From: Psammoneis japonica
Lineage: Eukaryota
NCBI GenBank assembly: GCA_008632985.1
Contig: QPGO01000308.1
Location: forward strand, 1 to 60,655
Direction: 5' to 3'
Length of the DNA stretch: 60,655 nt
The number at the start of each line of letters is the position of its first letter. The first letter of the stretch is position 1. The translations under genes and the position numbers were made by a program. Below the pieces are notes generated by a model. It was not told the DNA's origin. It did not search any database and was given only the letters and a program-made list of their open reading frames with translations. Shown here piece after piece: positions 130 through 60,409 of the stretch.

Positions 130-590
130 ACTGAACCACTGTGGCATGTGTGCATGCACGCACGCCAGCATGCACATTCAAAGCAAAGACAGTTCCAACA
201 CTGTCAACGATGCGACGACCCAAAAGCCACCTTGTGATGCAGCATGCAGCTAAAGCAAGCTGCGTGAATGGTGCAAAGCCCAAACAACACTTTGTCCTTT
301 TGTGCAGCAAGACAGTAGACAGCGGAGTGCCCATGTGGTGACTTCCCTGAGGTGTGGTTCTCTCGCAACTCGCAAGGCGCCGACTTTCTTCCTTCAGGCA
401 GCAAGGACAGTCAAGGAACGGAAAACCGGAAAACTGGCTTGTTGTGCCACGCTTGTTGCTTTTTCCAAACAAGCCTCTGTGTGTGGACTCTTGTCACGAT
501 CGCAAGTTTTTTCGAGAATGTTTTTAGAGCGAGAAACCTCAAAGACGACAACGTCTTTTTCAAGAATCGCACTTTGTTCTGCCTGATGGC
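130..590. other. TpA-depleted tract, probable degraded repeat at the window edge
   Basis: Few TA, many TG/CA (tgtggcatgtgtgcatgcacgcacgccagcatgcaca); overlapping short Cys/His-rich ORFs with no recognisable product; boundaries approximate. Confidence 0.45.
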
Positions 591-1917
591 TGACGGTAGT
601 GGTTTTGCACAGTCGATCGCACGGTACCCATGATATACATCAATCGAGGATGCTAGAAACGGAGAAAAAACGAATATCAATGCCTACTGTGTCACTTGTC
701 AGCCGTGGTAAAAAGCATGATGTGTCGGCCAACAACTATACGTCGCTTGTGGTGGTTTGCATGCCCATTTGATTGTTATTGTATGCGGCTTGGAAATGTT
801 GGGAGAATTAACCTACCGTATTGAACGAGGTTAAGGCATCAAGCCTTTATAGCTTCCTTGGGTTGCTGGAATAATCATTTGGGACGAGATTGGAAGGAAA
901 GCGACATTCGAGTCATACCTCACTATTACTTTCAGCGGCGTCAAAACTACCTTGCGAGACAAATCAAGAGACGAACGCATATAAATGAATCCAAAGAAAT
1001 GCAACCATCATGGATTGGCAGTGAAATACAAAATGAAAGTCTCCAAATAGAACCACACCGTTCTCCTACAAGAGCCATATACCGTATCGTGTCGATTCAA
1101 AGTTGATGTACCTTCTCTCAAGTACGATAAAAGACATGAAGCATTGTGATATGATTATTTAAAAGGTATGGAACGCATACCCGACAAGAATATTTGGCAT
1201 GGACACCAGCACTAAATCGGCGTGTGACCGTCGTTCTACCCGAGTGAGTCGGCAATCTTGTTGCTGCTCACATCCCGCGCCGCCTGTTGACTTTTCCCGA
1301 TCTCATTGAAATCTTCATCACACCATCTAGCACTGACGCAACAACATGGGGCCATTCATCATCAACCCAGACTTTGAGTATAGGATGAATAGCGTGACCG
1401 TTGCGCAACACTGAAGAACGTTAGTTAGAAAACAGAGTTGGGCAAGCCTGTCCACCGCAGCAGAAGCACAACAAGCAGGAATACGATTTGCGAGCGGACT
1501 GCAAAAAGTAAAGGGACTTTCAAAGTCAACGGGACAATAGAAAGAAGCATGGGCGGGCCATCACAACGCTCTGGCAGACCTTGCGATCTATCTCATTTCT
1601 TGTCGAGCGCAATCCGAACGGCTAGGAAGCTGAGATGAATCGAATAACATTTTGAGTGAATTGGTCAAATCTTGAAGACATATCTTTGTTCTTTCTTTAA
1701 CTGTTTTTTGGATTGAGCAGCATGGTGAATTTGCAAAGATTCCTGTCGTCTACGTCTGTTTTCGCTAAAAATGGAGAGGAAAAGCGACAGTACTGGCGTA
1801 GGTCAGGAGAAGAGGATGCTTACTGTTAGTATGTGTTCGGTTACACAGCTAATAAGCTGCAATAGCATGGTACGTGTACTGAAGCGTTGGACGTTTTGAC
1901 TGCTTTTGTATTCCATA

Positions 1918-3223
1918 CTAACAGTCTCTTTTCGATCCTGGGCATAGTTGTACAAATAGAAGCAAAGTTGCAGACTGTGGCATTTCTGACCGTATCTTCA
2001 TCCCCCCCCCCATGAAGATTCCAACTAAGGAGTCTGAAATAACGTTGCTGTTGATTGTTTTGTTGCTAACGTCGAAAACAACAATGTCGTTGATACTCCG
2101 AAGTTGATGGACGACGAAGCGCTGGAGATATCGTTTTCCTTGATGACAGTCTTTCGAAGCCTCTTGACCATCGCAGCCAACTTCCGCCTCGGAAATACTG
2201 CAAGAGGACGCCGGAGCCAGGGCGTGCCTCATTATCCACATAATGTTTACCAACCAAAACATTCGAAATGGCATTGCGCTGAACGTCGACTGCGACAGAA
2301 TTGATGAGTTTGGTTCCAATGTCAGACGAGTCGACCTTGTTCTGATGACGTTCATGCGCGGTCCAGGACAGAACAAGGTACCGAAATCGCAGGCTTGACA
2401 TGACACTTGAATCCCGATCGCAGGTAGATTATAAGTGGAAGCTCCATAGGTGATGACGTTGTTTTTGATTACTTCGGTCAAGGCTCTACCTCCGACAAAT
2501 ATGCGTAGGGAGCCCGAGTTGGGAAAGACCGAATCTTTGACCGTGAGCTGGTATTGCTGGACCGTTGAACACGACTGGACAAAAATGTCAAAGCTTGAGC
2601 TTGAATGGGACGATGTCTTCTATACGTTGATGACTTCAACCTGATGAACGACACGACTCGGAGGAGCCAGGAACGAGCAGTCAAGTCCGTCGACACCTTT
2701 CAACGTTAGATTCTCGATCTCCACATTGCTGTTGAGATTACCAAGGATGACCGCACCTGCTGAATTAGCAGTGGGTCGAATGATAGATGAACCAATTTCA
2801 CCTCCCCAAATCTAGACAGCATGGCGGCTTCGTTGTACGTTTAAGCCCAAGTTAAATGGATACACCGGAGCTCGCTCCCGCCAATGCTTTGGCAATGGTC
2901 GTGTAGTAAGGATCTTTGTCCTTGTCATTGCAATTCTCCTTGTCAGTGCCTGCCACGATCGTTCGAGGATCACCAGTGCCTTCAACCAAGCTCTCCTTCG
3001 AACCTGCGTCTGACAGCTTGCGTTGCGCTTGAACGTGTGCCGCCCTTAGTGAAGCCCGGCAGATGGGACCTGGCAAGGAGAGATGAATATTCTCTGGTCT
3101 AAGAAGGGACTCCATAACTGGCTGCACATCCCAAGAAACCCAAGCGGAAGATGCGTAGACATGGCTCGCACCCATCAAAGTACCAGGAACCAACGCCGCC
3201 ACGAAAACCTGTGCAAGGCGCAT
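1918..3223 (-). pseudogene. Disrupted paralog of the secreted beta-helix protein at 5404-6822
   Basis: MRLAQV...RKLSD...PRTIVAGTD aligns to MRLTQL...RKLSD...PRTVIVGTD. Stop at 2852 where the paralog has Q, followed by frameshifts. Downstream frames still match: IWGGEIGSSIIRP..NSNVEIENLTLKGVDGLD and IKNNVITYGA..IGIQVSCQA. Confidence 0.85.
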
Positions 3224-5403: not shown

Positions 5404-6822
5404 CTAGGGAGAGGGGGGCGGTGTGGGGAACGGAGGGGTATTGTCCATGAACGTGGTGCCACTGCCGTTGTCATCATATGGCGTGACGGCGTTTACTGTA
5501 TTATTCTTGACATTATTGTTATTGCCCACGACGGAGATGCCAACTGCACAATTGGATGCTATAAAATTGCTCTCGACCGTGTTGTTTGAAATGTTGATCG
5601 TTGCAACGTCAGAGAAGAAGGCGACCCCAGCGGTGTCAATTGGTACAGCGCAGGAGATGTCGTTGCTCTTGACATTGTTGATATCCACGACCTCTGGTCC
5701 ATCAGCACAGCCAAGATCATCACTGGCATTTCGCCGGAGAAGAATTCCCGCACCACCTTCTACACCGTTTGAAATGGCATTGTCTTGAATGTCGGCTGAA
5801 ATAGAGTTGAGGAGAAGGATTCCTACTCCAGCAGAATCGATCTGGTTCATTTTGACTTCCGTAGCTGGTCCTTGACAGAACAAGGCAATCCCAGTACCAG
5901 TAGCTTCAAAGTTGCTGACGGTGTTGGCCTCAACCACAACATTGGCTTGGCGGGACACTTCAATCCCAACGGAAGGCTGAATCCCGTCATCGGTGCCTTC
6001 ACCTATGAAAGGAGCCCCCCTTGTAAAGACGTTGTTCTTGATCGCTCCTAACATTGCGCTGCCGGCTACAAAAACACCAAAGGAGCCCACATTGGGAAAG
6101 GTTGAATCTATCACCCTGATCTGGTAGTCTCGGATTGATGAAAACGACTGCACAAATATGTCAAAGCTCCTGGTTGAATTGGGTTGCGTGTCCCTTATGT
6201 TCGTGATTGCGACCATAACAAAATGGGCATCGCAGTCGTCACAGGCAAATCCAGCCACGGCGTTTGAGCTAGCGCCGTCCAGCCCGTTGACGCCGTCCAG
6301 CGTTAGCCTCTCGAGCTCCACATTGCTGTTGTTACCGGCAAAGATGACTGAATCCGATGCATCGGTCAGGGGGCTAATGATGGACGAACCCATTCCTGCA
6401 CCCCTGATCTTGACGGTATATTCTGGGCTAATCTCCAAGGCTTCTTCGTACGTTTCAGCACAAAGTTGAATGACCACGCCAGAGCTCTCCTTCGCCAACG
6501 CTTCGGTGATGGTCGAGTAGTCAGGATCTTCATCATTGCACTTATCATCGTCAGTGCCCACAATGACTGTGCGAGGTCCAATATCACTTGAATCCGAGTC
6601 AGAGAGCTTACGTCGATCTTGAATTGGGGTAGCCCTTAGCATATTCCGGTTGGTGGAGCGCGGAAAAAAGGGCTGAATGTTCTCGGATGTTAAGGCTGAT
6701 CCGAAATCTGGTACTATATCCTCCCATGACTCCCATGATGGTTGTGACGAACCAACTATGGGAGTCGCTCCCATCAACGTGGCAGATCCCAAGGATGCAA
6801 AGGCGAGTTGAGTAAGGCGCAT
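5404..6822 (-). CDS. Secreted right-handed parallel beta-helix (pectin-lyase-like/NosD-like) protein, 472 aa
   Basis: Intact intronless ORF with signal peptide, RRKL motif, YSTITEAL..LCAETYEE..IRGAG..SII lead-in, repeated GI.v/N.v..N rungs and a Pro-rich C-terminus. Confidence 0.8.
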   Translation of the reverse strand: MRLTQLAFASLGSATLMGATPIVGSSQPSWESWEDIVPDFGSALTSENIQPFFPRSTNRNMLRATPIQDRRKLSDSDSSDIGPRTVIVGTDDDKCNDEDPDYSTITEALAKESSGVVIQLCAETYEEALEISPEYTVKIRGAGMGSSIISPLTDASDSVIFAGNNSNVELERLTLDGVNGLDGASSNAVAGFACDDCDAHFVMVAITNIRDTQPNSTRSFDIFVQSFSSIRDYQIRVIDSTFPNVGSFGVFVAGSAMLGAIKNNVFTRGAPFIGEGTDDGIQPSVGIEVSRQANVVVEANTVSNFEATGTGIALFCQGPATEVKMNQIDSAGVGILLLNSISADIQDNAISNGVEGGAGILLRRNASDDLGCADGPEVVDINNVKSNDISCAVPIDTAGVAFFSDVATINISNNTVESNFIASNCAVGISVVGNNNNVKNNTVNAVTPYDDNGSGTTFMDNTPPFPTPPPSP

Positions 6823-7908
6823 GGCGGTATTGCGATGAACCTTGTTGTCACGAGGCGTTGGAGATTGGAGATCCCTTGGATGACTTTTTTGTGTGATGTG
6901 AGGTGTGTTGGATTACATTCAGCACACCGAACAAAAGCGCTGATTCGACTCCGAGTACTTTAGTCTGCGTTTTGTTCTGCTGCAGCGTACATAGCATTGG
7001 ATTCATGATGTAGGCTTTTCGCGTTATGCGTCGCCGCAAGTAGAAACATTATGGCTGTAGATAAGTATCCTGGTTACTCCTATTGCAGCGCAATTCATTT
7101 ACAACTACAGTACCATCTTGTCTTACGTGTCAGAGAGCAGCTATACGGCGACATCGGCATCATATCACGATAATGTGACAAAGCGTTGATGCCAAGATGT
7201 AAGATCAAACATGCGTTATGCGAACGAACAAGACCAAAAAGTGAAAAAGCTAAATGACATTTTCCGGTTTCGTCCTGATACGAAAAGGAAAAATACTTAG
7301 GGGTCATTTCTGTCATAGAGTGACTGCTTCTTGGGTCTATCAGTAATGTTTGTATAAAGATCTAAATATATACACATAATAATTCCTAAGTAGTGTACTG
7401 GAGTCACAATAACGCACATAGCAGTTGATTGAATGTCTCATAGCCCTTGAGGACATGGAGTTAGTAAAGCCATCACCTTTTTTTGTCACTCTCTCGCGTA
7501 TCCCAAGATGATCAACCGCAATGAGAACTGGAGGTCCACATGTCGTCAGACCATGTGGTCCACATGGTCTGACAACAACCGTCAGGACACCGACTCAGCC
7601 TCACTGTCAACACCCCAAAGTCTCTGAGAAAAAAAATCATGCCCCACCCAGCCCAGAGCCCAGTCTCTGGTGGAGCATCCAAGAGGCGCTGGCTTGGAAG
7701 TGGCTCTTTCGACAGATTCCAGTCCTCCAGCAGGTGGAACTCTGTGTGGCATTGGGTCTGCAGAATTCTCTGTGTGAGCTCCGCAGCAAATTTGTCAAGC
7801 AATGACAACATGAACAATCGCGAACAGAAAAACAAAAGAGGAAATTTTGCCAAACCCTCCCCCCTCCTTCACACTTCTTGAAGCACATCATTGATGGTTT
7901 GCACAGGT

Positions 7909-8901
7909 GACATGTTCTAGTCCCAGGTGACACACAAAACAACAATCCATTTTGAACATAAATTGTGCATCTCTCGTGCATGAAGCACTTGAATGTAAAA
8001 TGCTCAGAGAGGCGGATGGGCTTTTGCAGAGGCTCAGAGTGTGAACATGTGAGCAGTTTTTTCATTGGCACTCAATTCCTCATGGGACACGCACCACAAA
8101 CTCTCTCTGCAAACTTAATGCTGATTGTGTGACAGTGCATTGGATGCACATTTTCGGGCGCAGGTGGAACACCTGCCAGGAGGTCTTGCAGAAAAATTGT
8201 TTGATTCAACACTCAAGTGTGATGGCAACAATTTTGCCAAAAATCATCCATTGTGTTGCAATTCATTTGTTGCAATGAAAAACATGAACAGCAAAAAAAG
8301 AATGACATTGCAACACTCACGCAAGTCTTGTTGGTGTTGCAAAACATTCAATTTTGGATGAATCTGTGCTTTTGGTGGTGTGAAAGCTCGTTCGCAAGTG
8401 GGCGTGTTCCAGTCCCAGGTGACACACAAAACGACAATCGATTTTGAATGTAAATTGTGCATCCATTAGTGTGTGGAGCATGTTCGTGTAAAATGCTCAA
8501 GCAAATTGGCTTTTATGAGTGTCCAGAGCATGGACAATTGTGAAGAAACAAACAGTTTTTTGTGGGGCATTAAAGTCCTCATGGAACATGTGTCACAAAC
8601 TTCCTCAGCAGACTCAACACTGATTGTGCGTCAGTGCTGTTCATGCTGAGATTTCTTTGCAGGTAGAAAATCTACCAAGAAGTGTCACAGAAAGATGTGT
8701 TTAGTTGACATCCAAATGACGGCAATGATTTTGCCGAAAATCATCCGTTTTGTGTTGCGATTCGTTCATCGCAATCAAAAACATTGATGGCAGGATGACA
8801 ATGATTTTGCAACACTCACATGAGTCGAGTCTTGTCAGTGTTGCAAAACATTAGAATTTGAATAAATCCACATTTTTGGTGGTGAAAAAGTGTTCGTAAG
8901 T
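7909..8901. repeat. ~490-bp tandem duplication (7909-8400 and 8401-8901)
   Basis: Both copies begin g..tgttc.agtcccaggtgacacacaaaac and end gttgcaaaacatt...tttggtggtg..aaag..gttcg.aagt. Confidence 0.85.
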
Positions 8902-9050
8902 CAGAGACCGCGCAAAAATTGTGCAAATGTCGTTTTTGTGCACGATTTGGGTCACGTGCGGCTGGAACACGTCAGTGAGAGACCATGCAAAAATTGCGCA
9001 AATGTCATTTTCGTGCATGATTTGGGTCACGTGCAGCTGGAACACGTCAG
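8901..9050. repeat. 75-bp tandem duplication
   Basis: agagacc..gcaaaaattg.gcaaatgtc.tttt.gtgca.gatttgggtcacgtgc.gctggaacacgtcag twice; internal differences are transitions in YR dinucleotides. Confidence 0.85.
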
Positions 9051-9375
9051 GTGTGTTCCACACCAGACATTGTAGAACACACCCAGCATGTTTTGATTCT
9101 CACAAATGTTGAAAATGGAAAGCCTCTTTGGCGCTTCGCGAAACAGGGAGAGCATGAGACAATTTCATAGAATGTCACACACAGCCATTTGCATGCAACA
9201 CATTTGGTGCAATCCAAAAAACTGTTCGATGTGTCACAGTTCAGCAGTGCGAGGTCCCACCTGGAGCTGAAACGCGGCTTTTCTCGCTCGTTTCCAGCGC
9301 TTTTGTCATGGTTTTGAGCAAGAAGGCTGCAAAACAAAGACCTGAATTTGCTTGCAAAGCTCAAAGGGTTGGCAT

Positions 9376-9765
9376 GACGCGTTCCAGGTCTAGGTGGGAC
9401 CTCGCACTACTGAACTGTGACATCGACAGTTTTTTGAATCACGTCGTATGTCGCACACGTAGATTTCTACGTGATTTTTTCGATATTTTGTGTCATTTTA
9501 CGGTACACTTATTGAGCGATCCGTCCAACAACTTTTGACATTTTTTGTTACAGCGCGATTCTATAATGTCTTAAGAATCGCGTAGGGCAGGCGCATTTGC
9601 AAAAACGTTGAGTGGCAAGAGGCATAATTGTACCACAAACTTGGCAGTTTATTTGATGTTGAAGATAAATATATCCATTAATTTAATTCTCGTACTACGG
9701 AGCTCGCACGTAGAATTCTACGGGCCCAATGTCACACGGAGTCCCACCTAGGACTGGAACCCGTC
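9376..9765. mobile_element. Non-autonomous TIR element (MITE), ~390 bp, possible 4-bp TSD GCAT
   Basis: Left end gacgcgttccaggtctaggtgggac; right end gtcccacctaggactggaacccgtc (inverted); gcat at 9372-9375 and 9766-9769; AT-rich non-coding interior. Confidence 0.75.
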
Positions 9766-10073
9766 GCATGTCATTGCCTCAAGGATGACTCTTCCACACA
9801 TTAGACTTGGACTGCTGCTCTGCCACTTTGACTTTCACTTGCTTCTTGCTTTGATCAGTTAAACGGTGTCTGCACACCGCCCGTCGGCATGCATTACAGT
9901 ACCGCCAGACCGATGACGTCATCTATGTTAGAACGCGCGTGCTCGCGCGGGCGCGCGGGGGGCTTCGATGACGTGTGCGATGCTCAACGTCACGCACAAA
10001 ATCTGCAACAGAATAACCAAACCAAAATCGCAGACGACAACGATACATAAAGACCACAACAACAAGACAAACC

Positions 10074-11229
10074 ATGAAGTGGACTCAAGCTGCAATTACA
10101 GGCCTCGTTTGCCTCGCTGGCTCCACCAGAGCCTTTGGACCATCTCGTGCGTTTGTATCTAGAACACCAGCTTTCTCCACGGCTGCTGCTGCTGTCGCGC
10201 CTCGATACAACACCGCCCTGAATGCCAATGTTCTCAAGCTGTCGGAACCGGCTTCTCAGATTCTCGACAATACCGATGTGTTTATTTTTGATTGTGATGG
10301 TGTCATTTGGAGGGTACGTGTCGAACCGTATCTTATGATTGCATTACTTTGACTGGTGCTAACTCATACATCATATGTCTCTGTTCACACTTCTCACATT
10401 ATCACAGGGCGATTCCTTGATTGACGGCATTCCCGAAACGCTCGCCAAGTTGCGTGCCATGGGTAAGAAAATGTACTTTGTCACCAACAACTCGACGAAA
10501 TCCCGCAAGGGCTACAAGAAAAAGTTTGATTCGCTGGGACTCGACATTCCCGCCGAAGAAATCTTTTCGTCGTCCTTTGCGGCCGCTGCCTATTTGGAAC
10601 AGACCAAATTCAAAGACACGGGAAAGAAAGTCTATGTCATTGGTGAGGTGGGAATTTGTGAAGAATTGGATCTTATTGATGTTCCGTGGATGGGTGGACC
10701 GGACGATAAGGGCAAGGAACCCGACATGGGACCCGGCGGTATGCTGCACCAAGATGAGGACGTGGGTGCCGTCATTGTGGGCTTTGATCGCAACATTAAC
10801 TATTACAAGATTCAGTACGCACAGCTTTGCATTAATGAAAACGACAATTGCGAATTCATTGCCACCAACACGGATGCCGTGACACACTTGACGGATGCGC
10901 AAGAGTGGGCCGGCAATGGCAGCATGGTGGGTGCCATCAAGGGATGCACCGGACAAGAACCCACCGTTGTGGGCAAGCCGAGTCCGCTCATGATTGATTA
11001 CCTTTGTACCAAGTTGGGTTTGGAACGGTCTCGTATCTGTATGGTTGGTGATCGTCTGGATACCGATGTCTTGTTTGGGACCGATAATGGATTGCAGTCC
11101 TTGTTGGTCTTGTCGGGTGTCACGTCGGAAGAAAAGCTCCTTAGCCCGGAAAACAGCATTACACCCGATTACTATGCCGATACGATTAATGACTTTTTCC
11201 TGGAGTCGCACGCCAAGGTTGAAGCTTAG
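10074..11229 (+). CDS. PGP: Phosphoglycolate phosphatase (HAD IIA), plastid-targeted; exons 10074-10313 and 10408-11229
   Basis: FIFDCDGVIWR|GD motif I across a GT-AG intron 10314-10407; FVTNNS, GKPS, MVGDRLDTD; signal peptide plus TRA-FGP (ASAFAP-like) transit peptide. Confidence 0.95.
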
Positions 11230-14229: not shown

Positions 14230-16030
14230 GGTCGACATTCGGAGATTTCAATCGTGCCGCACCCCAACAGGATAGGGACAACACACAGGTGCCCCGATGT
14301 GTTGGCCACAGGCACAACAAAAAAGGGGGCATTTCAAGTGGTCATGTGTGTCCCACATCAGAGTGGTGTGTGTGGTTGGTTTTGCTCCCACTGTGAGTTG
14401 ATTGTCACAGCCAGCAGCATTTGGTGAGTGACAAAAAGTGCCTCAATGCTGCGCAGCGACTGGCAGAGCTGCTCTGCCCTGGGGCCACACACAGAAGCAA
14501 CGAGTTTTTTGCATGAAAAACAGCTGACACAGCCAGTTTTTGACAAAAGCTGGCTGGCGGCCCTCCTCTGACTCCCTCAGGCCCCCCAGCAGCACAGCAG
14601 ATTTTTGCAGTGGCTGTGTCATGATGCACACCACTTGCTGTGTTTTTTGTGCCCAAAACAGCTCTGCATCGGCAGCAAGAAAAAAAACAAACAGCAAAAG
14701 TTTGCTCATTTTTGGCCAGCTTGAAATGCTGAGCATGTCACACACAGACACAGCCACGATTGTCCTGTTTTTTCAGTGATCTTTTTTGTGCTCATTCTCT
14801 TGCCACCCAACACGAAGCAATTGAGAACGCAAGTGAGGAGAGGCCCAGTGCTGCTGCTTGCAACAACAAAAAAAAGCAGGAGGTGACTGCTCTTGCTGCA
14901 AAAACTGGGTTGGTGGGACCCTTGAAGCTCTTGCCACAATGGACATGTTGCAGCCACACTTGAACCAAAAATCGCACACACAAAAATGACACGTGCGTGC
15001 CATTTTCACATGGTCTCTAAATTGCGGACAAGCTTTCACCACCAAAAGCACAGATTCATCCAAAAACATCAAATGTTCTGCAATGCCAACAAAGCTCACA
15101 TGCGTGCTGCAGCGTCATTCTTGCTTTTGTGCCATTTGTGTTCTTTGTTGTGCCAAACAAATTGCAGCACCACAGATGATTTTTGGCAAAAATGTCAAAG
15201 ATTTGTGTTGATTTGGTGTTTGCATGAGCAGACATTGAAAACAATTGCTCATGATGTTTTCCAGTGGGTGCTCTGCATGCATGGGATTCTCCCCACCAAA
15301 TGTGCTGTTGCACAAAAACCGGCATTGAGTCTGCAAAGGGAATTTATGATGCATCATGTTCCATGAGAACTTGACACCCACAAAAATGCATGCTGCCATG
15401 ATCATCTGGACAAGCATTTTATGAAAATGCCCCATGCATGAGAGACACAAAGCTTGCCTTTAAAATGGATTGACATTTCATGCATCACCTGGGGCTGGAG
15501 CATGTCAATGCTGGGCCCAATTGCAGCAAGGTTGCCAAGGTTTGTTGCACACAACATGGGTTCCCAGAGCCCAGAGAGAAGAAATGTGTCTTCTTCTGGC
15601 CAGATGATCATGCACAGTCTGTGGCTGCAGAGGTTCTTGCCGACCATCAGACACACAGAGTGATTTTGTGCTTGTTTTCTTGTCCAACATGGAGTGAGCA
15701 GGCAACATGATGATGGCACTGCCACTTTCTTCCAGCCACTTTTGAGAAACAAGAGAGCAGAGCCAAAGAGAAGGTTTTTGGCGCTGGTTGTTGTTGTGTG
15801 ACCCCCAGAACAAGCTCGCCCCATGTGCTGGTGATGGGTCCAGACATCAACCAGGTCACCACAACACAATTTCTTTTGCAAGAACTTCACCCGTTGTTGA
15901 TCGAGAATGTTCTCCGCCTGAGCTGGCCTGACAGCGTCCGATGGTGCCTCCCACAAAGAATCCATCAAAAATCGGCGACGCGAAATGTCAATGTTGTTGT
16001 CCTTCCCGTCCTTCCAATCGGATGCAAGTC
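14230..16030. repeat. TpA-depleted tract (unidentified degraded element)
   Basis: TA nearly absent over 1.8 kb, CG also low; dense Cys/His-rich ORFs in all frames; TA-rich edges on both sides. Confidence 0.7.
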
Positions 16031-16438
16031 CCGTACAAAGTTTACTACCAGATGACATTGTACATTGGACACATGTTCGGTCGCGGATCATGTGATTCAA
16101 AAATACCTGAACTATAAGTGAACGTATAATGGACCCGAAATATAAACATACAGATTTATTAGATTTCAAATTTGAATCACCTTGCCCACGGGATTCAGAC
16201 ACCCGTTGTTGTTTTCAAAATATCCGATGGAGATGCCAAAAGAAACAACGCGCTCGTCTCACTATTTTGCAAGAGTCAACAAGTTGAGAAAGTTACAAAA
16301 AACAAACAAGGTAAAGCGCTATTCTGTCACGGTGTGCTCTCATGGACACGAGCGAGTGTCAACAACCAACGTTGTTTCTTACTTTGTGTTTGTTTTCTTT
16401 TCGTTCTCTCCATTATTTGCGCAAAGAATTCCAAAAAG

Positions 16439-24901: not shown

Positions 24902-25089
24902 GGTTGCTTGTTGTTGCTTGCCTTATTCTTTTTCCCATTTCTCGCGTTGTTACGAGACAAACGGCCGACAGACAGACAAATGCGACGGAAGAGTCGATTT
25001 CACGATTTCCGTCGTCCCCGTGCTTTTTGTGTGGCATTCCATGCTGACAATGGCGTGCCACCGATGACGCCGTTGATTTTAATTTTTAT

Positions 25090-28690: not shown

Positions 28691-28869
28691 GATGATATGC
28701 AGGATTGAGGGGTTGGCATCTCGGAGACTTGGATCTATGCTCCTTGAACCTCTTGACTCATTGGGTGATTGATCGGTCTTTTACATATGTAGAGTACATA
28801 TAGTTCATGTTATTTATTGCTTGTTCCCATCATTGTCCACTCTCGACTTTTTGGGAATAAAGATTTACG

Positions 28870-30994: not shown

Positions 30995-31024
30995 CTGCAA
31001 TTGCAGTCAATTGTAAAGAGTTGA

Positions 31025-35987: not shown

Positions 35988-36110
35988 TCAGGGGGTTTTC
36001 TTCCCAACACCTGGGTTTCCTCCTGTCATTGTCTTTGCTTTTGGTTTTGGTCCTTGGTTTTTGGCCCTTTGCATGATCCTCTGGTTCTTTCGGATCATAG
36101 AAGGGAAGAG

Positions 36111-36274
36111 TGCAGCAACTCACCCGCACGCTTCTGACGTGCAGTGTCAATTTTGGACATTGGATCAACGCAGCCGTTTGAGAGAGGCTCGCCAGCATTC
36201 GCTGGCGCTTGGGCTCCCCTCTCTTCGGTCTACTCACTTCTTTGTTTTGACATCAGTTTCAGCTTGAGCTTGCA
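36111..36274 (+). repeat. 3' LTR
   Basis: Preceded by the PPT and followed by TSD CACAT. Confidence 0.95.
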
Positions 36275-36387
36275 CACATGACTGCCGGCTCGGTGGACAC
36301 TGTTTCGAGTGCGTTTTCACGTAGAGCCCACTGCAGATGTAGGCATTCAGATTTAATTCGGTACAAATCTACGCAGCATTTTGCGTA

Positions 36388-36424
36388 GGGTGCACACGAA
36401 CCACCAGGTGGTTCGTGTGCACCC
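36388..36424. repeat. Perfect 18-bp-arm palindrome with a 1-nt spacer
   Basis: gggtgcacacgaaccacc-a-ggtggttcgtgtgcaccc, followed by an imperfect second copy at 36430-36459. Confidence 0.9.
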
Positions 36425-36701
36425 AAAAATGCACACGGACCAGCAGGTGGTTCGTGTGCGAAAAATCTATATGTGACGAAGACAACATATTTACCCCTCG
36501 GCGTAATTCACACGGCCAAATGTTTGCGTAGAGGCCCTCGCTCAGGGGTGGGTAGGCCCTACCGTAGCGGCGCAGGCGGGCGCGGCTTCGCTTCGCTGTC
36601 GATTGCGGCTCACCACATTTTTGCGGGAGTTTTCGCTTTTTTTTTTACCGGCATGATAGGCATCAGGGTCACACTCTTTTCTCAGTCTCGACGGATTCAA
36701 G

Positions 36702-39279: not shown

Positions 39280-39579
39280 GAAATGTGAGGCCTGAAGTGC
39301 CTCGACTGGCGCTTTCAAGCTCTTCTCTTGGAAGATCCTTTAGACGTGTGCTTTAGAGAGAGGATGTGAAACAAACGACAACCAAAGCTGATGACTCTCT
39401 GCCACCAACCACTCTCTCCAACCACTTCGATTTCCTGCCCGTCACTGTTGAATGTGAAGTCCTTGGATCGTTGCGGACGTCTAGTTTCTTTCATCGTTCC
39501 TAAGCTGCTCCCTCCTGGTTTCAAAACAAAAAGACAAAAACTGAACTGCTGCACTTTCCCACTTTCGCTGCCCTCTAGA

Positions 39580-42500: not shown

Positions 42501-44690
42501 GTGCACACATCCACAACATTGTCCTTGATGCATTGCTTGTTCATCCATGGCTGTTGCATGTTGGGGCCAGAGGAGGAGGCATGCATGAAACCACAAGCAG
42601 TGCTGCCCCCCATTTCCCCCCCCCCCCCCACACACAAATTGCAAAAAGAAGTGGGCCTGCTGCTGCCACCACAGGTGGTTTGTGATCATTGAGTGAGGAA
42701 GTCCTTTGGTCTTTGGTGCATCTGCTGCTGGGAGCAGAGTTTTCCATGCTGCAGGGGTCACAAAAGTGCACTCAAGTTCATTTGAAGTGCACTCATCACA
42801 AGAGGAGGAACAAGAAACAAGATGCCCAGGATCCAAAATGGTGCACCACCACATTTTTCACAGATCACTTGTCTGTCAATTTTTTCAATTGGGGGACATC
42901 TCTCCCTGAACTCTTCTGTGGTGATGTTGTGTGTTGTGAGGTGTGTTGGTGCACATGATGACAGAGAGTGCCATGGACAAGATGGTGAGTGGAAAAACAC
43001 ACCCAGAAAAGTGCAAAAATGCACTTCCCTGCAAAGACTGCACACCGATGTGGCACAATTGTGAGAAAGCAAAGGGCTCCACACTCAAGAGACTTGAAAC
43101 TGATTTGCATGCAATGTCATCTTTCCAGAAAAGAAGATTTTCAGTGAAAGAACAGCACAGATTGAAGCTGCATCCAGGGGTTCCACAGATGCTCAGTTGA
43201 TGGAGGAACCGAGTGTTGGCATGCCAGCAACACAAGAGCCCAAGCATTGAGAGGACTGGAGCTTGCCCCACTGGCTCTTCATGTCAATGTGCTTCCCTGA
43301 TGTGGCTGGATCATGCCAGCTGGAAAAGATCAGAGTGTTGTGTCAAGCCACTGGAGTGCAGGGCATTGAAGGCCAGATTGCAAAGGCAGAGCAGCACCTT
43401 GCTGGCCTCTCACAAAAGAAAGCATCAACAGCCTGCACCAAGCCTGTGAGCCACACATCACATCTTGCAGTGAGCAGTGTTTTGGCATTTGGTGCACCCC
43501 TTCAGAAAACAACTGACGCTGAACTTGAAGACATGATTGACATGGATGAGGCAAAAATTCTTTCCTGAGTTTTCCACTCTTTCTGAGTTTTCCAACCAAT
43601 CACATGCAAAGATGTCGCCAGAGCACCAATGCCGCACAACTGGACTTTGTGGTCATGGAAGAGGAAGAAGAATTTTTGTGAGAGCAACATCTCCATGTGG
43701 TTGTCATTGGCACAAATTTGAGGAACAACCTGGAGCTGATGTGGTGCTTTTCATGAGTCTGCCTGTTGACGAGATTCTTGCAGACATTGGCCTGCAGGCC
43801 ATGGACAGCTTGGTTCAACACCATCCCATCTGGTTGTCTGGTCAATTCTCATGGTGGGTCACCAGGTGGGGTGTTCCTCACCCCCTGCCACCCGGTGGAT
43901 GACCCATCAAACTCATGCTCAACATGTTCAAAGGGGCCCTCAAGGGATGCTCTCACATTGGGAGATCTTCCATGATGCAGATCTTGTGCTGAAGTTGTGC
44001 TCTGTCATTGGAATTCTTGGCCCTCCTCACTGCCCTGGTTTTTGTGAGGTGGGCTTTAGATGAAAAACAACAAAACACAGAGAACAATCTGCGAGTGGCT
44101 GAGCCGCAGCTGCCCACGGAAAATGAAGCTTTCTAAAATCTCAGCACCCCTGGCCTGATTTGTGCACAAAAGCAACCCAGTGCGCGGGTTGGTGGCAGAC
44201 AATGCCCCTCACTTGTTCACTTGTGCACAAATTGCATGTGCATCAGAGCACCTGCTGGACATGCCCGGCACACAAGCCAACTTCAGCAGCTGCCTTGCAG
44301 GGCAAAATGTTGAAGCAACATTTGCTGTGCACAGATCTGCTGAAGTGCCACTGCCACTTGAAAGTCTCGGCACTCTTTTTGTCATTTCTTCAAGAAGCTG
44401 GGCAAGACGTTGATCACTTTGCCCTCTTTCAACCCGAAGCAAGTGCAAAGATGCGCCGCAATTGCTGCTTGATTGTTGATTGTCAAGCGCTGATTTAAGG
44501 AAGCTTTTTTTTCATGACGATGGGGGGGAATCTCCTCCCATCAAGTGCCTTCTCTTGACTTCTTGAGGCTCAGCGTCGCCCAACCCGGTCGATTGTGCCG
44601 GTGTGTTCATCATCGTCATGGCTGTGGTCCGGCAATGGCATCTTTCGCCCATGCATGGCGTGATCTGAAGAATGGAGCGGCAGACACAAC
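39580..44690. repeat. Large tract depleted in both TpA and CpG, containing Copia remnants
   Basis: For example, no TA between 40021 and 40390; CG also rare; boundaries approximate. Confidence 0.8.
41870..42530 (-). mobile_element. Ty1/Copia integrase and downstream region, heavily degraded
   Basis: VVDVCTWCPWVF (~IVD.YTRY.WVF), QGGEL, HGCTVELTG, LLHSLG..FWSDAVLHA..LKN, ATCAAFVEAHF..P.PQLLFDL; a pre-integrase-like LWCHHLGHPG also occurs near 40200. Confidence 0.75.
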
Positions 44691-45062
44691 ATATAAGACG
44701 AAAAAATGTGGCAGACACGATTAAAATATCATATATGCGCATCCAACATCGTATAAAAATGACAAAAAGGGATGCGCTTCTTCAACATCTTATTGATTGA
44801 CATTTATTCAATAGTAAGAGTGTTCATAAATTCTCAACGGACAAATAGAAAAAAGATCCTCATGCTTGAAAAACAAATGTAAGCATGCTACAGTAATCAC
44901 ATTGTGTGATAGGGCCCTCTACGCTCTATCTACGTATGTACATGTCATCTCAAAATGCTCGTCGCGTCGCCCTGATGCTCGTTTTCGCTTCGGAGTTCGT
45001 TCGGATCTCGCATTCTTTTTACACTCTGTAGAGAAAAAAGAAACATACTCTCGACTCCAACC

Positions 45063-46403
45063 ATGGCGTCTCCATGGAGGATTAGCCGCATCATGCATCT
45101 GCCGAAATGGTTGATCGTGTCTATGGCACTGTTGCTGGTCATTATGGATGCAAGATCCGCTTCTATTGCCATGACTTTCCACGTCGCCTCATTGATGAAA
45201 CAGTCACGTACATGGAGAATAGAGTATACATTGATCCTTCCCACGGCGACAAGGCGTGCTCCAACCCAGACGATGACGAAGAAGCTGCAGAAGACATTGA
45301 CTATGGCGTACCACAAAAGGAGCATGACGAGGCGACGCAGAAAGTCATTGCAGAAACTGTCAAGTACATGGAGAATACAGTATATGTTGATGCTGCCTAC
45401 GAATCGGTACGCAGCAGGTGCAAGAATGAACATGTAGACTGTGCTTATTGGGCGAGTGTTGGTGAGTGCGAAAAGAGTTCACAGTATATGAATCAGCATT
45501 GTACTGCTGCCTGTCAAACGTGTGATATGCTCCACGTTGCCAAGAGGTGTAAATGGGATCCTACCAAACCTCAAGCATGGAAACACGGCGATTTGAATCG
45601 CATGTTTGAACGCATCACGGCCGACCCTGATTTAATCGAAAAGTACAGTCCAACCATTTTGTCACGGCCGTCTGAAAACAAGGATGAGGACGGACCTTGG
45701 ATCATTACTCTTGATAATTTCATTTCGGAAACAGAGTGCGACTATCTTATTCAAGCTGGTAAGGATGTTGGATACGAACGATCCACGGGTGGATCCGACA
45801 AGAAGGGTGAAAACGGAGAATACCTGAGTACCGTGTCCGAGTACCGCACGTCGTACCAGACATGGTGCATGGGCGAGTGCTATGAGAGTGAAGCGGCCCG
45901 AAATGTTTCGGCTCGCATTGAACACGTGACGGGGATTGCCGAAGTACATTCCGAGTTCTTCGAATTGCTTCGATACCAGCCTGGTCAGTATTACAAAGTT
46001 CACGGCGATTTTATCGATGTTCAGTTGGAGCGGCCCATGGGACCGAGGCTCTTGACTGTTTTCCTCTACTTGAACGAACCAGAAGAGGGAGGAGGGACGA
46101 GCTTTCCTAAGCTAGGTCCGTTAACGGTGCAACCAAAACGTGGTCGCGCCCTGATTTGGCCATCGGTGTTGAATGAAGATTTTTCTACACCTGATACACG
46201 AACGGACCACGAGGTATGTTTTATGTATGTAGGGCGTTTGTCCTTGATTCACAGAAATGCGTGCTCACAACACCTTGTTCTTCTGGTGAAACAAAAAAAT
46301 TCAGGCCTTGCCCGTTGTTGCTGGTGAGAAATATAGTGTCAATGCGTGGTTACACCTGGGAGACTTCAAGGATGCCTATGCACGAAGCTGCAGCTTCAAT
46401 TAG
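45063..46403 (+). CDS. P4H: Prolyl 4-hydroxylase with ShK domain; intron 46214-46304; apparent frameshift near 45175 after the signal peptide
   Basis: CKNEHVDCAYWASVGEC..YMNQHC..ACQTC (ShK); RTS..WC, LLRY..GQYY..HGD, RLLTVFLYLN..EGGGT.FP, HE|ALPV..GEKY..NAWLH. Confidence 0.9.
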
Positions 46404-48412: not shown

Positions 48413-48540
48413 CGGGAAAAGAACTTGGGGAAAGATGCTTGAAGCGCCGCCATTGTGCGTGATTGATTGATGCCAGAAATGTGGGTACAGGTCAAGGGCC
48501 TATGAGAAATAACAGAGAGTGATTGAACTCTGCTGTGTGT

Positions 48541-48880
48541 TCTACTCTCTCTACTAGAGAGAGTAGAGCTAGAGTACAGTAGAGGTAGCTACCTACTCTC
48601 TCTCTAGCTAGAGCTAGTAGAGAGAGCACCGTAGCTACTAGAGTAGAGCTAGTAGTAGAGGTAGCTACCTGCCGGTGGCCACCGGCAGCCAGAGCCAGCC
48701 AGCTGCTCTCTGCTCTAGCTTTTTGCTGGAGTTGCGGGGTGGAAGCATGGCAGCACTTTAAACAGTGGAGAGCCAGCAGCCAGAGAGCAGAGCTGCCGCC
48801 ATGTGATGCTGCCGCACCGCAGAGAGAGCTGCCATGACTGCGACTCTCTCTCTAGCCAGCTGGCTGCTCTGGCTGGCAGG
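48541..48880. repeat. TAG/CTA/GA low-complexity satellite: intact to ~48668, TpA-converted beyond
   Basis: agagtagagctagtagtagaggtagctacc changes to ctgccggtggccaccggcagccagagccagccagctgctctc. Confidence 0.8.
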
Positions 48881-49770
48881 ATGACAGTCAGATGGGAACA
48901 CTGGAAAATCTTTCACACACTGCGAGCAGATCTCATTCTGGCACTCGGTCCAGAGTGTGCACACAAAGAAGGGTCACCCATCCTCAGCCAAACCATTTCG
49001 AAAGACGAACTTTTCACAATCAACACGGGATGCCGGCAAGTGCTTGTGCATCCCATCCGCAGCAATCTTGCTCAATGCATCAAAATCTGTGCGCTCCTCG
49101 GGCGTCGATGACTTCTTGCAGCCCAGCTTGAGCAGCAAGTCCGACGGATCGAACCCTGTCAAATTGTTCCCAGTTCGAGGCTCACAAGAAAAGCACAACA
49201 AATGCAAATGAGATGGGTTGGAGTGGCGCGTTGTCCTTGTAGTCAGCGTGCATGAGGAGCCAACAACGCAAGCCACCCGATGTGGCGTCCTTGCAAATGC
49301 CGCAGTGCCGCCCAACTCCACGATGGGTGGAGCCTCGAGTTGGAGGAGGAGGAGTTGGGACATCCTCTGCAGTCTCATTGTTGCCGCCATGATGCCTTGG
49401 ATCTGCTTCTGCGGGTGAGGGTCAGCCTCATGCCGGCAGTCAGAGTCGCTGTCATCAGAGCAGTCGTCGATGCCACCATCGGTCTGCACGCCAACAGAGA
49501 CAACCACGTGCTGCAACAACAAGCCCCAATTTTTGAGGTTCCCAGTGGGTGCAGCATTGTCGTCCTCAATGTCTCCAGCTGCAGCAGCGTCGGTGCCATT
49601 TTGGCGTGAAGTTTGAAAGATGGGGCATTCGAAAAAGGCTGTGGTGAAGGACACAATGACGGACCCAATGCTGACGAGCGCTTTGTTGTGACGTGCGCCC
49701 GCCGAGTGCAGCACATGGCGTTGGAACTTGCAAATCCAAGTGCAAGTTTCCTTGAGAACAAAGAAATGAG
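48669..49770. other. TpA-depleted tract
   Basis: Very few TA between the satellite and the MITE. Confidence 0.7.
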
Positions 49771-49775
49771 CACTA

Positions 49776-50137
49776 TGGGGACATCCCGAATAAATTTAGC
49801 CAGTGGCTAAAAACCTCCTGTAGAATTCTACGGATTTCTCCTGGTATGCGATATATTTAATGATAACGCCTTTTAACGCCACCCCATTGTTTTCTTTTAT
49901 ATACATATTATTATTTGTAGTTTTTTGTTTTTGTATTCATTTTGAAACGCTTAAAAGCTAAATGTTTTATATGAACGAACGTTATAGTTAGCACCAAACC
50001 GTTACAGATATGACATTTATAGGTTCAGTACAATGGATAGTAAATACTTTTTGTGTAGAAAATATACCAGCGTACAAACCTGGTATGTGTCTACACAAAA
50101 TTTTAGCCACTGGCTAAAATCATTCGGTATGTCCCCA
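49776..50137. mobile_element. AT-rich MITE, ~360 bp, with ~37-bp TIRs, flanked by TA (Tc1/mariner-type target)
   Basis: ta|tggggacatcccgaataaatttagccagtggctaaaa ... ttttagccactggctaaaatcattcggtatgtcccca|ta. Confidence 0.85.
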
Positions 50138-50261
50138 TAATAGTGAACAAGAAGGAGGGGACCACCATGCAAACCAAATCAATGTCGAGGTTTGAGGATT
50201 CGCTCGGCCATGTCAAAGCCTGTACACAACACGACGGAGAGCCAATATTTTGTGACGAAAG

Positions 50262-58560: not shown

Positions 58561-59877
58561 CTACTCCTTGCTCTTCTCCTCTTTTTCATTATTCCCTTTG
58601 GCTCGATTCAATCCTTGTTCCAACTCGGTCGCTTCCTCGACTCGCTTGCATTTGAAGAGGTATGTCACGGACGACTTGTCGGGATTGAGCGTTGTGAGTT
58701 GTATGCAATGATCGCTTTTGCGTTCACACCGCGACAAAAGTAACTTGACATTGATCAAGAGCTTTGTTCCCGGTCCACCCGCTGTGGTTTCCCGTCGTTG
58801 CACAACACGGCCGTGTCCATTCTGGACAAGAATGCGCAACGGACCAATCCCGACCTCTTTCCACTCTTTTTCTGTAGTAGAACTGTCTTGTTTTGTTTCT
58901 GATTTCTTTTCGGGAGTTGGTTTCTTGGCTTGCGCAGAATTGCTGCTGGGTGGGACCGAGGGTGCCGACGATGCCTTTTTCGTTTCGTCCGTCTCGGCTT
59001 CTTCTCCTTCCTCTTCTTCTTCTGGTTTTTTATCCGCCAACTCAAAGGCCTTGACTCGAACCTGAAGAATACACTCTTCGTTCTCTTCCCCTGTACTGAG
59101 TTTCACAGACTCGGGAAGAACCACGGCTGGTTCTTCTTTTGGTTTGCTTGCAGTAGCAAAGCCAGACGAAGCAAAGCCAGACGTTGTTTCTCCGGATGAT
59201 GCCGATCCAAATCCTGAACTTGTCGTAGAACCAAAAGTTGATGTAGTTGCTGCTGCAGCTGCACCGAATCCCTTGGAAGCTGCTGTTCCGGCACCAAACA
59301 CAAATGCCCCAGAAGATGCTGCGGTTGATCCGAATCCGGCAGAAGAAGCTGTTCCAGAACCAAACACTCCAGACGACGCTGCAGTCTTATTTTCGACTTT
59401 TCCAAACCCACTAGTTTTGCTCGTACTATTATTAGTACCGAATGCCTTGCTAAAGGTACTACCAAAGACACTAGTAGTACTACTCTTGCTCTTTTCAGCA
59501 GCCGCAGCAAAGGGATTGTTCGACGTGGTTGCTTCTGGAGCTGCAGCGGACGGTCGCTTGACTTTGAGAATTTTACGCTTTTTCAAGACTTCCTCGCTCG
59601 CCCGTTCAAACGAACCCGGGGCAGCGTTTGTACTGCCTTCGTCTTCATCTTCTTTATCGTCCTTTGTGATTTGTCGATCGGCGACGCGCTTCTTTTTGGC
59701 TGGTGCAGCGCTCGTTTGTTTTGTTTCCGCAGGCGTTGTGGATGTTTTTGTTTCGCTTTCTTTTGCTTCTACCGGTGATTTGTCGTCTGCTTTTTTGTCG
59801 TTGCTAATGCCGCCGTTTTCTTCTGGCTTGGCACCGCCCTCATCCTTGGCGGCATCCGTGGTGGTTGACGCCGCCAT
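58561..59877 (-). CDS. NUP50: Nup50/Nup2-like FG nucleoporin with Ran-binding domain, 438 aa
   Basis: KKRVADRQITKDD..FERASEEVLKKRKILKVKR N-terminal motif, FG repeats, TGEENE..WKEVGIGPLRIL RanBD. Confidence 0.9.
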   Translation of the reverse strand: MAASTTTDAAKDEGGAKPEENGGISNDKKADDKSPVEAKESETKTSTTPAETKQTSAAPAKKKRVADRQITKDDKEDEDEGSTNAAPGSFERASEEVLKKRKILKVKRPSAAAPEATTSNNPFAAAAEKSKSSTTSVFGSTFSKAFGTNNSTSKTSGFGKVENKTAASSGVFGSGTASSAGFGSTAASSGAFVFGAGTAASKGFGAAAAATTSTFGSTTSSGFGSASSGETTSGFASSGFATASKPKEEPAVVLPESVKLSTGEENEECILQVRVKAFELADKKPEEEEEGEEAETDETKKASSAPSVPPSSNSAQAKKPTPEKKSETKQDSSTTEKEWKEVGIGPLRILVQNGHGRVVQRRETTAGGPGTKLLINVKLLLSRCERKSDHCIQLTTLNPDKSSVTYLFKCKRVEEATELEQGLNRAKGNNEKEEKSKE

Positions 59878-59954
59878 GGTGATGTTGAAATAAAAGTGAT
59901 TGCGCTGAGGTCCGGCGGCGCCCACGTGAGGTTCGGTACATTTTCTACTTAGGA

Positions 59955-60409
59955 ATGATGGGAAAATCTGTCTGTCTGTCTGTCTCACGCAACATGGTCC
60001 GTGACTCGATAAAGAATGGCCCACATTGCTGCACAGGATGCCACATGGGGCTGCACCTGCACTGTAAGAGAGAATGGGCTTGGGGAAAAAGAAAAAGACA
60101 CTGGACTGCCATGGGTGAGATGTTGACAAATAAAGAGCCAATGACAACTGCTCCTCCGTTGCATCATTTGCACCGCTGGTCGAACACCAAATGCCCGCCA
60201 AGAAGCGAAGCCTCAGAAAACATGCATTGTTGGCAACGACATGCTGCAAGACGTCTGTCACTGAGCATGGAACAGTGATGATGGAGGTCTCACTGGCAGC
60301 ATCACTTCTGTGGGTGGAAACAGCACCATTCCCTGAGCAAAAGCTTCAGCAGTGCCGCTGCGAGGATCAAGAATGTGGGGGCCTTCTGCATTCATTGAGA
60401 ATGCCGGCA
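59955..60409. other. TpA-depleted tract between the NUP50 start and a MITE
   Basis: About three TA in 450 bp; TG/CA-rich. Confidence 0.6.

Follow-up and report, generated by a model that had tools for sequence, protein, structure and literature searches.

Domains almost devoid of TpA in nuclear DNA of the diatom Psammoneis japonica: probable A:T to G:C hypermutation of silent mobile and repeated DNA

Positions 1 to 60,655 of contig QPGO01000308.1 (GenBank assembly GCA_008632985.1) from the diatom Psammoneis japonica were analysed, and this stretch of 60,655 nucleotides is referred to as the window. It is eukaryotic nuclear DNA with a GC content of 48% and long exons, and its host genes alternate with eight or nine sharply bounded domains from which the dinucleotide TpA has almost vanished. 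These erased domains, which include a Ty3/gypsy long terminal repeat (LTR) retrotransposon (the LTR element), amount to about 19.6-19.8 kb (32% of the window) and have a TA observed/expected ratio (o/e) of 0.02-0.12. Host open reading frames (ORFs) have a TA o/e of 0.6 and a normal Tyr content of 2.3%. A sequence-only reading of the window had put about one third of it in discrete TpA-erased domains lying between genes normal in TA and Tyr, and was right on both counts. The domains, and one unerased tract beside them, are as follows (dinucleotide values are o/e unless given as counts).

130-590: domain a, 461 bp, no content assigned; 3 TA, TA o/e 0.10, CG 0.73, TG 1.66, CA 1.48; no Pfam match
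7500-9390: domain b, repeat content, with tandem ~490-bp non-coding units (7909-8399 and 8401-8901), a 75-bp tandem repeat (8895-9050) and an erased copy of a ~100-nt module (9178-9276); TA o/e 0.12, CG 0.56; TA is absent for 419 bp after 7499
14274-16033: domain c, with inverted copies of the domain-b repeat unit at 15022-15507; 4 TA, TA o/e 0.034, CG 0.30, TG 1.92, CA 1.80
25088-27003: domain d, no content assigned; 4 TA, TA o/e 0.033, CG 0.26; a 1451-bp TA-free gap; no Pfam match
28867-30830, with a further 42 bp at 36280-36321: domain e, an older repeat and the insertion target of the LTR element, with an erased module copy at 29957-30033; TA o/e 0.073, CG 0.47
30831-36274, + strand: LTR element, Ty3/gypsy, TA nearly all erased; TA o/e 0.076, CG 0.81
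39790-44691: domain g, 4.9 kb, the most extreme, no content assigned; 7 TA, TA o/e 0.024, CG 0.16, TG 1.81, CA 1.94
48540-48668: TA-rich low-complexity tract with GTAGAG/CTAGAG/GCTACC motifs, unerased, adjoining domain h on the left; 23 TA, 2 CA and 0 TG in 129 nt
48669-49773: domain h, starting as a similar low-complexity tract with CA/TG replacing TA; TA o/e 0.021 and CG 0.69 over 48854-49773
60132-60424: domain i, 293 bp, upstream of a NUP50-like gene; 0 TA, TG 1.91, CA 1.51; adjoined by a TA-normal module copy at 60406-60510

TA o/e for the whole window is 0.44, and sliding windows resolve it into blocks at 0.00-0.15 with 0.4-1.0 elsewhere. In 300-bp bins the distribution is bimodal, 45 bins lying at 0.0-0.1 and a second mode at 0.5-0.7. 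A two-state Poisson hidden Markov model (HMM) on 100-bp bins separates states with TA o/e of 0.068 and 0.61 and raises the log-likelihood from -1399 for one state to -1078 (a gain of 321), so that the sliding-window and HMM check proposed with the sequence-only reading came out in its favour. The depleted state occupies eight segments (1-500, 7501-9400, 14301-16000, 25101-27000, 28901-36200, 39801-44600, 48801-49700 and 60201-60400) that sum to 19.2 kb, or 31.7% of the window. The edges in the list above were refined by reading them from the TA positions themselves, domain e and the LTR element together forming one block at 28867-36321. Most of the tract edges proposed earlier agree with them within a few tens of bases; however, the one at 27190 lay about 190 bp too far right, and those at 39580 and 59955 about 200 bp too far left, in ambiguous zones of 3-4 TAs each.

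The edges are step-like. TA occurs every 5-30 bp up to 7499, 14273, 28866 and 48666, is missing for hundreds of bases inside, and resumes at 9391, 16034, 36322, 44692, 49774 and 60425. At 50-400 bp outside the edges TA o/e is 0.72-0.74, which is background, and thus no leakage into the flanks is seen; the innermost 50 bp cannot be judged, the edges having been defined from TAs. The longest TA-free gaps measure 1859, 1451, 1275 and 1084 bp (those of 1859 and 1275 bp in domain g), as compared with a mean gap of 34 bp, and there are 20 gaps of at least 300 bp. By comparison, 200 first-order Markov simulations with the dinucleotide content of the window never gave a gap longer than 472 bp or more than two gaps of at least 300 bp. 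Chance is excluded as the cause of the TA-free domains.

The dinucleotide profile of the erased DNA (o/e of TA 0.06, CG 0.48, TG 1.72 and CA 1.72) departs from that of normal DNA (0.60, 0.99, 1.19 and 1.19) while the sum of these four pyrimidine-purine steps stays the same, at 3.98 and 3.97 respectively. The changes are therefore transitions at those steps only. AT (0.89), AA (1.22), GC and the remaining steps are near normal in erased DNA, GC content is 0.50 compared to 0.47, and TC o/e over the whole window is 1.03. Conversion of TA to TG/CA, together with a separate conversion of CG to TG/CA, would account for this profile. Over 121 windows of 500 bp, TA and TG/CA are negatively correlated (r = -0.80). 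The change uses both strands, the gains of TG and CA being strand-symmetric in seven of nine domains; the asymmetric ones are the LTR element (584 TG and 443 CA on the sense strand) and, marginally, domain d (250 and 207, p 0.049). The separate loss of CpG is seen in CG o/e values below 0.5 in 21 of 38 erased 500-bp windows, compared to one of 83 normal ones. The domains vary widely in CG o/e, the extremes being domain g (0.16) and the LTR element (0.81), whereas their TA o/e is 0.02-0.12 throughout. TA erasure, which is 88-98% complete, is therefore faster than CpG decay and independent of it. GC-biased gene conversion was rejected as an explanation, since TA steps alone are affected and AT and AA are spared. 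Transcription-strand asymmetry as a general feature was rejected for seven of nine domains, the LTR element remaining a candidate for it.

The direction of the change can be read from the LTR element. Its LTRs (30831-30994 and 36111-36274) are 164 nt long with TG..CA ends, are 99.4% identical in purine/pyrimidine coding, and are flanked by a perfect 5-bp target-site duplication, CACAT, at 30826-30830 and 36275-36279. A single reading frame without indels runs from 31197 to 35522, and the Pfam domains of pol follow the Ty3/gypsy order (RVT_1, RT_RNaseH_2, Integrase_H2C2, rve). Of 1624 pol homologs, two are named reverse transcriptase (RT) of Nitzschia inconspicua. The element holds 26 TA where about 239 are expected at the o/e of 0.70 of its relatives, a loss of about 89%. 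Its pol has no Tyr in 686 residues, compared to 2.6-4.5% Tyr in all 120 homologs listed, none of which is Tyr-poor. Tyr is present in at least 60% of 40 homologs at 21 alignment columns, and the element fills these with 14 Cys (TGY), four His (CAY), two Phe and one Arg (CGT), leaving no Tyr. The catalytic RT motif YxDD reads CIDD; the remaining conserved residues are kept in 69-100% of columns across the same 40 homologs. With conserved Tyr codons reading Cys or His and the RT active site lost, the sequence has decayed from a TA-normal ancestor, and judged against its homologs the direction of change is TA to TG/CA. CpG-type changes in pol take Arg to stop, Cys, His or Gln. All nine in-frame stops of the 1,574-codon ORF region are TGA, and the two in the RT-integrase part fall at Arg columns of the homologs, fitting CGA to TGA.

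Erasure is not a trait of the element's lineage, since its relatives are unerased. Among 79 metagenome loci with pol relatives (379.9 kb), TA o/e is 0.43-1.00 with a median of about 0.70, and none of the 79 carries the signature. Four TA-free gaps of at least 300 bp do occur in these relatives; they are gag segments, rich in both GC and CG, whose TG/CA is close to 1 or lower, and as such are not the signature. The sample is biased to intact, abundant elements and cannot show that the process is absent elsewhere.

The two LTRs, which were identical at integration, differ at 19 positions, all of them transitions at pyrimidine-purine steps, and at none of about 88 other positions. The sites fall into seven with CG opposed to TG/CA, two TA/TG, four CA/TG, three CG/CG and one TA/TA. 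At least part of the change therefore took place after integration, and the pair shows that both TA change and CpG decay have worked on chromosomal DNA. An indirect bound on the rate is given by the roughly 89% of expected TAs that are gone from the element, set beside the absence of LTR differences at the ~88 positions outside pyrimidine-purine steps.

A strong sequence preference is seen when surviving TAs are counted by context and compared with the TA contexts of normal DNA, taken as a proxy for the ancestral state. Survivors number 1 against 510 in R-TA-Y, 39 against 940 where one strand is favourable and 31 against 264 in Y-TA-R, so that survival tracks the number of strands offering TA with a 3' pyrimidine. 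No survivors are found for the tetranucleotides ATAT (0/246), ATAC and GTAT; survival is best for TTAA (20/120) and CTAA/TTAG (19/129), and surviving TAs show an excess of T at -2 and of A at +2. There is thus a strong preference for a pyrimidine after TA (T-A-Y, or R-T-A as read on the other strand).

Outside the LTR element, repeats that exist in several copies give a further view of the ancestral state. The ~490-bp units at 7909-8399, 8401-8901 and 15022-15507 (inverted), a repeat family common to domains b and c, share 66-76% base identity that rises to 82-94% in purine/pyrimidine coding, with 7-14 sites per pair discordant as CA and TG; for the tandem pair in domain b the figures are 70%, 87.5% and 14 sites. 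A ~100-nt module is present in TA-normal copies (9365-9480, 9675-9790 and 60400-60515; more tightly 9371-9473 on the + strand, 9680-9780 on the - strand, and 60406-60510) and in erased ones (9170-9285, 7690-7805 and 29935-30050; more tightly 9178-9276, 7710-7788 and 29957-30033). Between normal and erased copies CTAGG becomes CCAGG or CTGAG, GTAGA becomes GCAGA or GCAAA, and CTACG becomes CTGTG or CTGCA. From this comparison of three normal with three erased copies it follows that TA is ancestral and that either product is possible at one site. The switch between the two states can be abrupt: at 48668, within about 10 nt, the TA-rich tract gives way to the start of domain h, where 192 nt (48669-48860) hold 3 TA, 18 CA and 18 TG.

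The module family has a conserved core, GTAGAATTCTACGTG, and is sometimes paired as the inverted ends of 300-400-bp units resembling miniature inverted-repeat transposable elements (MITE-like units); it has no Rfam match. One such unit, TA-rich and TA-normal, with inverted ends at 49774-49812 and 50101-50139, adjoins the right edge of domain h. TA-normal copies of the family (9371-9473, 49774-50139 and 60406-60510) sit precisely on the right edge of three of the erased domains, and may be young insertions favouring domain edges. Directly to the right of domain d lies a ~380-bp tandem duplication (27381-28171, 92% identity, CpG o/e 1.2-1.7) that is TA-normal. The tract at 48540-48668 is the most TA-rich stretch of the window; it has palindrome-rich motifs, GGTAGCTACC and CTAGCTAG, and adjoins an erased tract of similar style.

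Repetition is thus insufficient for erasure, as the module copies, the MITE-like unit and the 380-bp duplication are repeated and TA-normal. Either the cue is a regional one, or the escaping repeats are of more recent origin or fall short in length. The regional character claimed in the sequence-only reading, namely a process untied to reverse transcription, is borne out by the erasure of non-coding repeats, of a low-complexity tract and of domains without any match, with TG/CA symmetry in seven of nine. Its account of the contents stands for a single Ty3/gypsy LTR element, for repeats and for DNA without a match; the microsatellite that it counted as erased has to be divided, the TA-rich half at 48540-48668 being unerased and the continuation from 48669 erased. 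The losses of Tyr codons and of TAA/TAG stops that it foresaw are those described above for pol, and the false Cys/His-rich ORFs that it expected are present. A Pfam search of 123 stop-to-stop ORFs of at least 70 amino acids gave only sub-threshold noise for domains outside the LTR element, and a homolog search with a 300-amino-acid ORF of domain g returned nothing; an ORF of that length is expected there by chance, since TGA is the sole stop. The ends of the other domains were also searched for terminal repeats, direct or inverted; none exceeded the null, even in purine/pyrimidine coding.

Contigs from a public run, here X1, which contains 84% of sampled words of 36000-45999, were compared with the window. 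At a word depth of about 56x they span domains e and g and differ from the window there by 0.6-0.9%. One stretch of 1684 nt, in which normal density would give about 40 TA, has 14 differences; the erased sequence, being present in X1 too, is therefore not an assembly error. One contig, joining 30825 to 36275 with five shared letters, carries this site empty of the LTR element and confirms that the element landed inside an older erased repeat (domain e). Contigs at least 90% alike pile up on the LTR element to a summed word depth of 1600-2600, compared to about 56 on single-copy DNA; the domain-e empty-site junction reaches 870, and domain g is single-copy-like at the same likeness, summed contig depth being only a hint and not a copy number. 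The contigs piling up there differ from the window by 199 transitions and 42 transversions. Several double changes from CA to TG fall at one step (29993-4, 31453-4, 31828-9 and 36082-3). Records lying wholly in erased DNA differ at 16 of 1885 positions (about 0.85%) and wholly normal ones at none of 1897, the erased stretches concerned being 28867-30520 and 41229-43106. Seven differences in domain e lie far from contig ends, and all are CG in X1 where the window has TG/CA; these one-directional differences may stem from methylated CpG miscalled in the consensus or from variation between alleles or strains.

We suggest, with a probability of roughly 0.7, that the domains result from DNA-level A:T to G:C hypermutation of TpA confined to silent mobile or repeated DNA of the diatom nuclear genome. 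TpA would become TpG or CpA by an A:T to G:C transition on either strand. A deaminase of the TadA/ADAT type may convert DNA adenine to inosine, which is then read as G, and the enzyme would be directed to silent, CpG-methylated chromatin instead of to repeats as such. Its function would be genome defence like that of fungal repeat-induced point mutation (RIP), by the opposite base change. Because Tyr codons and TAA/TAG are destroyed without any new stop, elements are inactivated (as in YxDD to CIDD) and long spurious Cys/His-rich ORFs are left. A more specific proposal, tentative and at somewhat less than even odds, is that diatoms possess a heterochromatin-directed defence that deaminates chromosomal adenine at T-A-Y until transposons are all but free of TpA, is homologous to the TpA hypermutation of chlorarachniophytes, and kills transposons through loss of Tyr and of promoter and target sites with no stop created.

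Several points weigh against this interpretation. The enzyme chemistry and the targeting cue are read back from the pattern of changes. The natural tRNA target of the TadA/ADAT family is an A preceded by U (for TadA/ADAT2, A34 after the invariant U33), and T-A-Y is what a related deaminase might show. Four to five domains have no Pfam, Rfam or protein match, so they are not demonstrably transposons. X1 is possibly the same sample as the assembly, and is independent in read type at most. In the LTR pair, ancestral TA sites are few and about two of the four CA/TG discordances are attributable to CpG by two-copy arithmetic; the pair therefore proves just a handful of post-integration TA changes, and much of the element's erasure could predate the present insertion. 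The strand skew of the element is a further point: TG is 1.68 and CA 1.22 in pol, as compared with 1.22 and 1.09 in relatives. In 30 relatives, TA with a 3' pyrimidine and no 5' purine outnumbers the converse by 1111 to 559, so codon context explains part of the TG excess, perhaps not all of it.

Among the alternatives, homology- or repeat-induced targeting as in RIP, by which any multi-copy sequence would be mutated whatever its chromatin state, finds support in the depths on the LTR element and at the domain-e empty-site junction and in the family common to domains b and c. We consider it unlikely. The TA-normal module copies, MITE-like unit and 380-bp duplication adjoining erased domains argue against homology alone as the cue, even if recent origin or a minimum length for erasure may be all that sets them apart, and domain g, the most erased, has single-copy-like depth. 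It is quite unlikely, in our view, that thymine and not adenine is the modified base, TET/JBP enzymes converting the T of TpA to 5-hydroxymethyluracil (5hmU) or 5-formyluracil in silenced transposable element (TE) chromatin and mispairing or faulty repair then giving T to C. A palindromic TpA target with symmetric TG/CA products fits such a two-strand mark, and adenine deamination and thymine modification are inseparable by sequence alone; 5hmU, however, pairs normally with A, and TC steps are undepleted. In dinoflagellates, which also belong to the supergroup of stramenopiles, alveolates and Rhizaria (SAR), TET/JBP-made 5hmU is enriched on transposons and silences them, and older work had T replaced preferentially in TA and TC, according to the available text of PMC11572971. 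A base-resolution 5hmU map of Breviolum gave no sequence motif in the available text of PMC11071213, and we found no literature report of 5hmU in diatoms.

Editing before integration, whether ADAR-like A-to-I change of retroelement RNA or deamination of cDNA during reverse transcription, would suit the sense-strand excess of TG over CA in the LTR element and the preference of ADAR for U upstream of the edited A, as given in the available part of bioRxiv 10.64898/2026.01.13.699255. It is nevertheless highly improbable: domains that are non-coding and no retroelements are equally erased with symmetric TG and CA, both products occur inside one LTR pair differing only at pyrimidine-purine steps, erased and unerased copies of one short repeat lie 100 bp apart, and erasure extends to the host repeat that holds the LTR insertion. 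What was found is neither generally strand-asymmetric nor limited to reverse-transcribed copies. Hardly credible, finally, is an artefact of base-calling or assembly at modified bases, or DNA that was always TA-poor through foreign composition or selection against TA. Differences between the window and X1 do lie mainly in erased DNA and the seven CG sites run in a single direction; X1 contigs nonetheless reproduce the TA-free sequence (at most 14 differences in the 1684 nt), conserved Tyr turned to Cys or His and a destroyed RT active site mark decay from a TA-normal ancestor, and the relatives have ordinary TA o/e.

The closest known system is that of the chlorarachniophyte Bigelowiella natans, in whose mutation-accumulation lines the mutation rate of two integrated viral regions is about 1000 times that of the remaining genome; nearly all changes are A to G or T to C, and TpA is the site of every one (Mettrop et al. 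2026, bioRxiv 10.64898/2026.01.13.699255). The available part of that preprint also describes TpA-poor, CpA+TpG-rich coding sequence clusters enriched in RT and DDE Pfams, and proposes an ADAT2-like deaminase. As there, the change in the window is restricted to TpA, gives TpG or CpA by strand, is local with host genes spared, falls on foreign or mobile DNA and leaves long-term TpA-poor clusters. The window differs in coming from a diatom (Stramenopiles) and not from Rhizaria, and in being near saturation, where the nucleocytoplasmic large DNA virus region of B. natans has a Rho of 0.45 and the virophage region is TA-rich, as far as the preprint's available text goes. No viral genes are recognisable in the window, where an LTR retrotransposon and non-coding repeats are hit instead of integrated viral DNA. 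The T-A-Y context and the co-located CpG decay come from the window, and the B. natans change was observed live whereas that of the window is known from sequence alone. We found no report of TpA erasure in diatoms in the literature and the signature described only in the B. natans preprint; as far as this search shows, the window would be the second described case and the first for diatoms.

RIP of Neurospora and other ascomycetes is likewise a chromosomal hypermutation of mobile DNA on both strands, with transitions at one dinucleotide and sharp domains beside normal genes. It converts CpA to TpA, raising TA, lowering GC and creating stops. In the window, by contrast, TpA is removed, CpA and TpG go up, GC is unchanged or slightly raised, the TA change creates no stops and some repeats escape; RIP was rejected on these grounds, its defining C to T change at CpA being absent. 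As to duplication as a trigger, some erased DNA is multi-copy-like, the repeated modules and the 380-bp duplication are TA-normal, and domain g is single-copy-like. Diatom TEs are CpG-methylated through DNMT5a, as the available text of PMC9998398 has it. Decay of diatom transposons driven by 5-methylcytosine resembles what is seen in the same domains in its loss of CpG and gain of TG/CA; cytosine deamination cannot, however, remove TA, and the LTR element combines its CG of 0.81 with a TA of 0.076. APOBEC and ADAR of animals are alike in being deaminase-type hypermutation that inactivates retroelements, but they act on RNA or cDNA before integration, with strand asymmetry and on retro-copies only, whereas in the window non-retroelement DNA is hit on both strands. 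Dinoflagellate 5hmU shares a SAR-lineage base modification on TEs and an old report of TA/TC preference (in the available text of PMC11572971); that is an epigenetic mark, whereas the window shows mutation, with TC unaffected.

If our interpretation is true, the window adds to the one known example of TpA-directed A:T to G:C hypermutation of mobile DNA a second, which is far more complete and belongs to a different major lineage. The process would then not be peculiar to one chlorarachniophyte, and would reach retrotransposons and non-coding repeats beyond integrated viruses, in a group of key marine primary producers. The saturated end-state lets the preference be read, T-A-Y being strongly preferred and Y-TA-R resistant. 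Long Cys/His-rich ORFs free of stops, and repeats diverged by transitions only, would mislead TE annotation and gene prediction in diatoms; purine/pyrimidine coding recovers such repeats in comparison, and the two ratios TA o/e and TG/CA o/e jointly give an inexpensive marker for silenced DNA. Should the enzyme behind the change be an adenine deaminase that works on double-stranded DNA of the chromosome, it would be of interest to base-editing research. Were the heterochromatin-defence proposal to hold, adenine editing of DNA would count as an ancient form of immunity in the SAR supergroup, and there would be a naturally occurring A-to-G DNA editor defined by sequence context.

Both indices, TA and TG/CA, are needed because the GC-rich (0.60) ORF region at 19751-20750 has a low TA o/e of 0.20-0.31 with TG/CA of 1.15-1.29, which is no excess. 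This is ordinary compositional TA poverty and not the erasure signature.

The placement in a diatom nucleus is supported by a HAD-family phosphoglycolate phosphatase gene (10363-11229), whose product is 76-92% identical to the best 120 matches listed; among these, each match with an organism name is a diatom (Fragilaria, Synedropsis, Phaeodactylum, Thalassiosira, Chaetoceros and others) and none is identical. A Pfam search of the ORFs of the window found no deaminase gene, and an Rfam search of the window gave zero matches. Further host genes recognised by Pfam encode a two-domain CrcB/FEX protein, a NUP50/RanBP1 protein, a Kelch protein, a prolyl-4-hydroxylase with a ShK domain, and paralogous beta-helix proteins. 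The last are right-handed (NosD-like) and lie at 1918-2968 and 5404-6912 on the - strand, with about 65% DNA identity, both TA-normal. Contigs of a further run, X2, which is not recorded as RNA, fall on gene islands only and skip 182 bases at 37854-38037 and 103 at 46214-46318 with intron-like joints, so that X2 may be a transcriptome.

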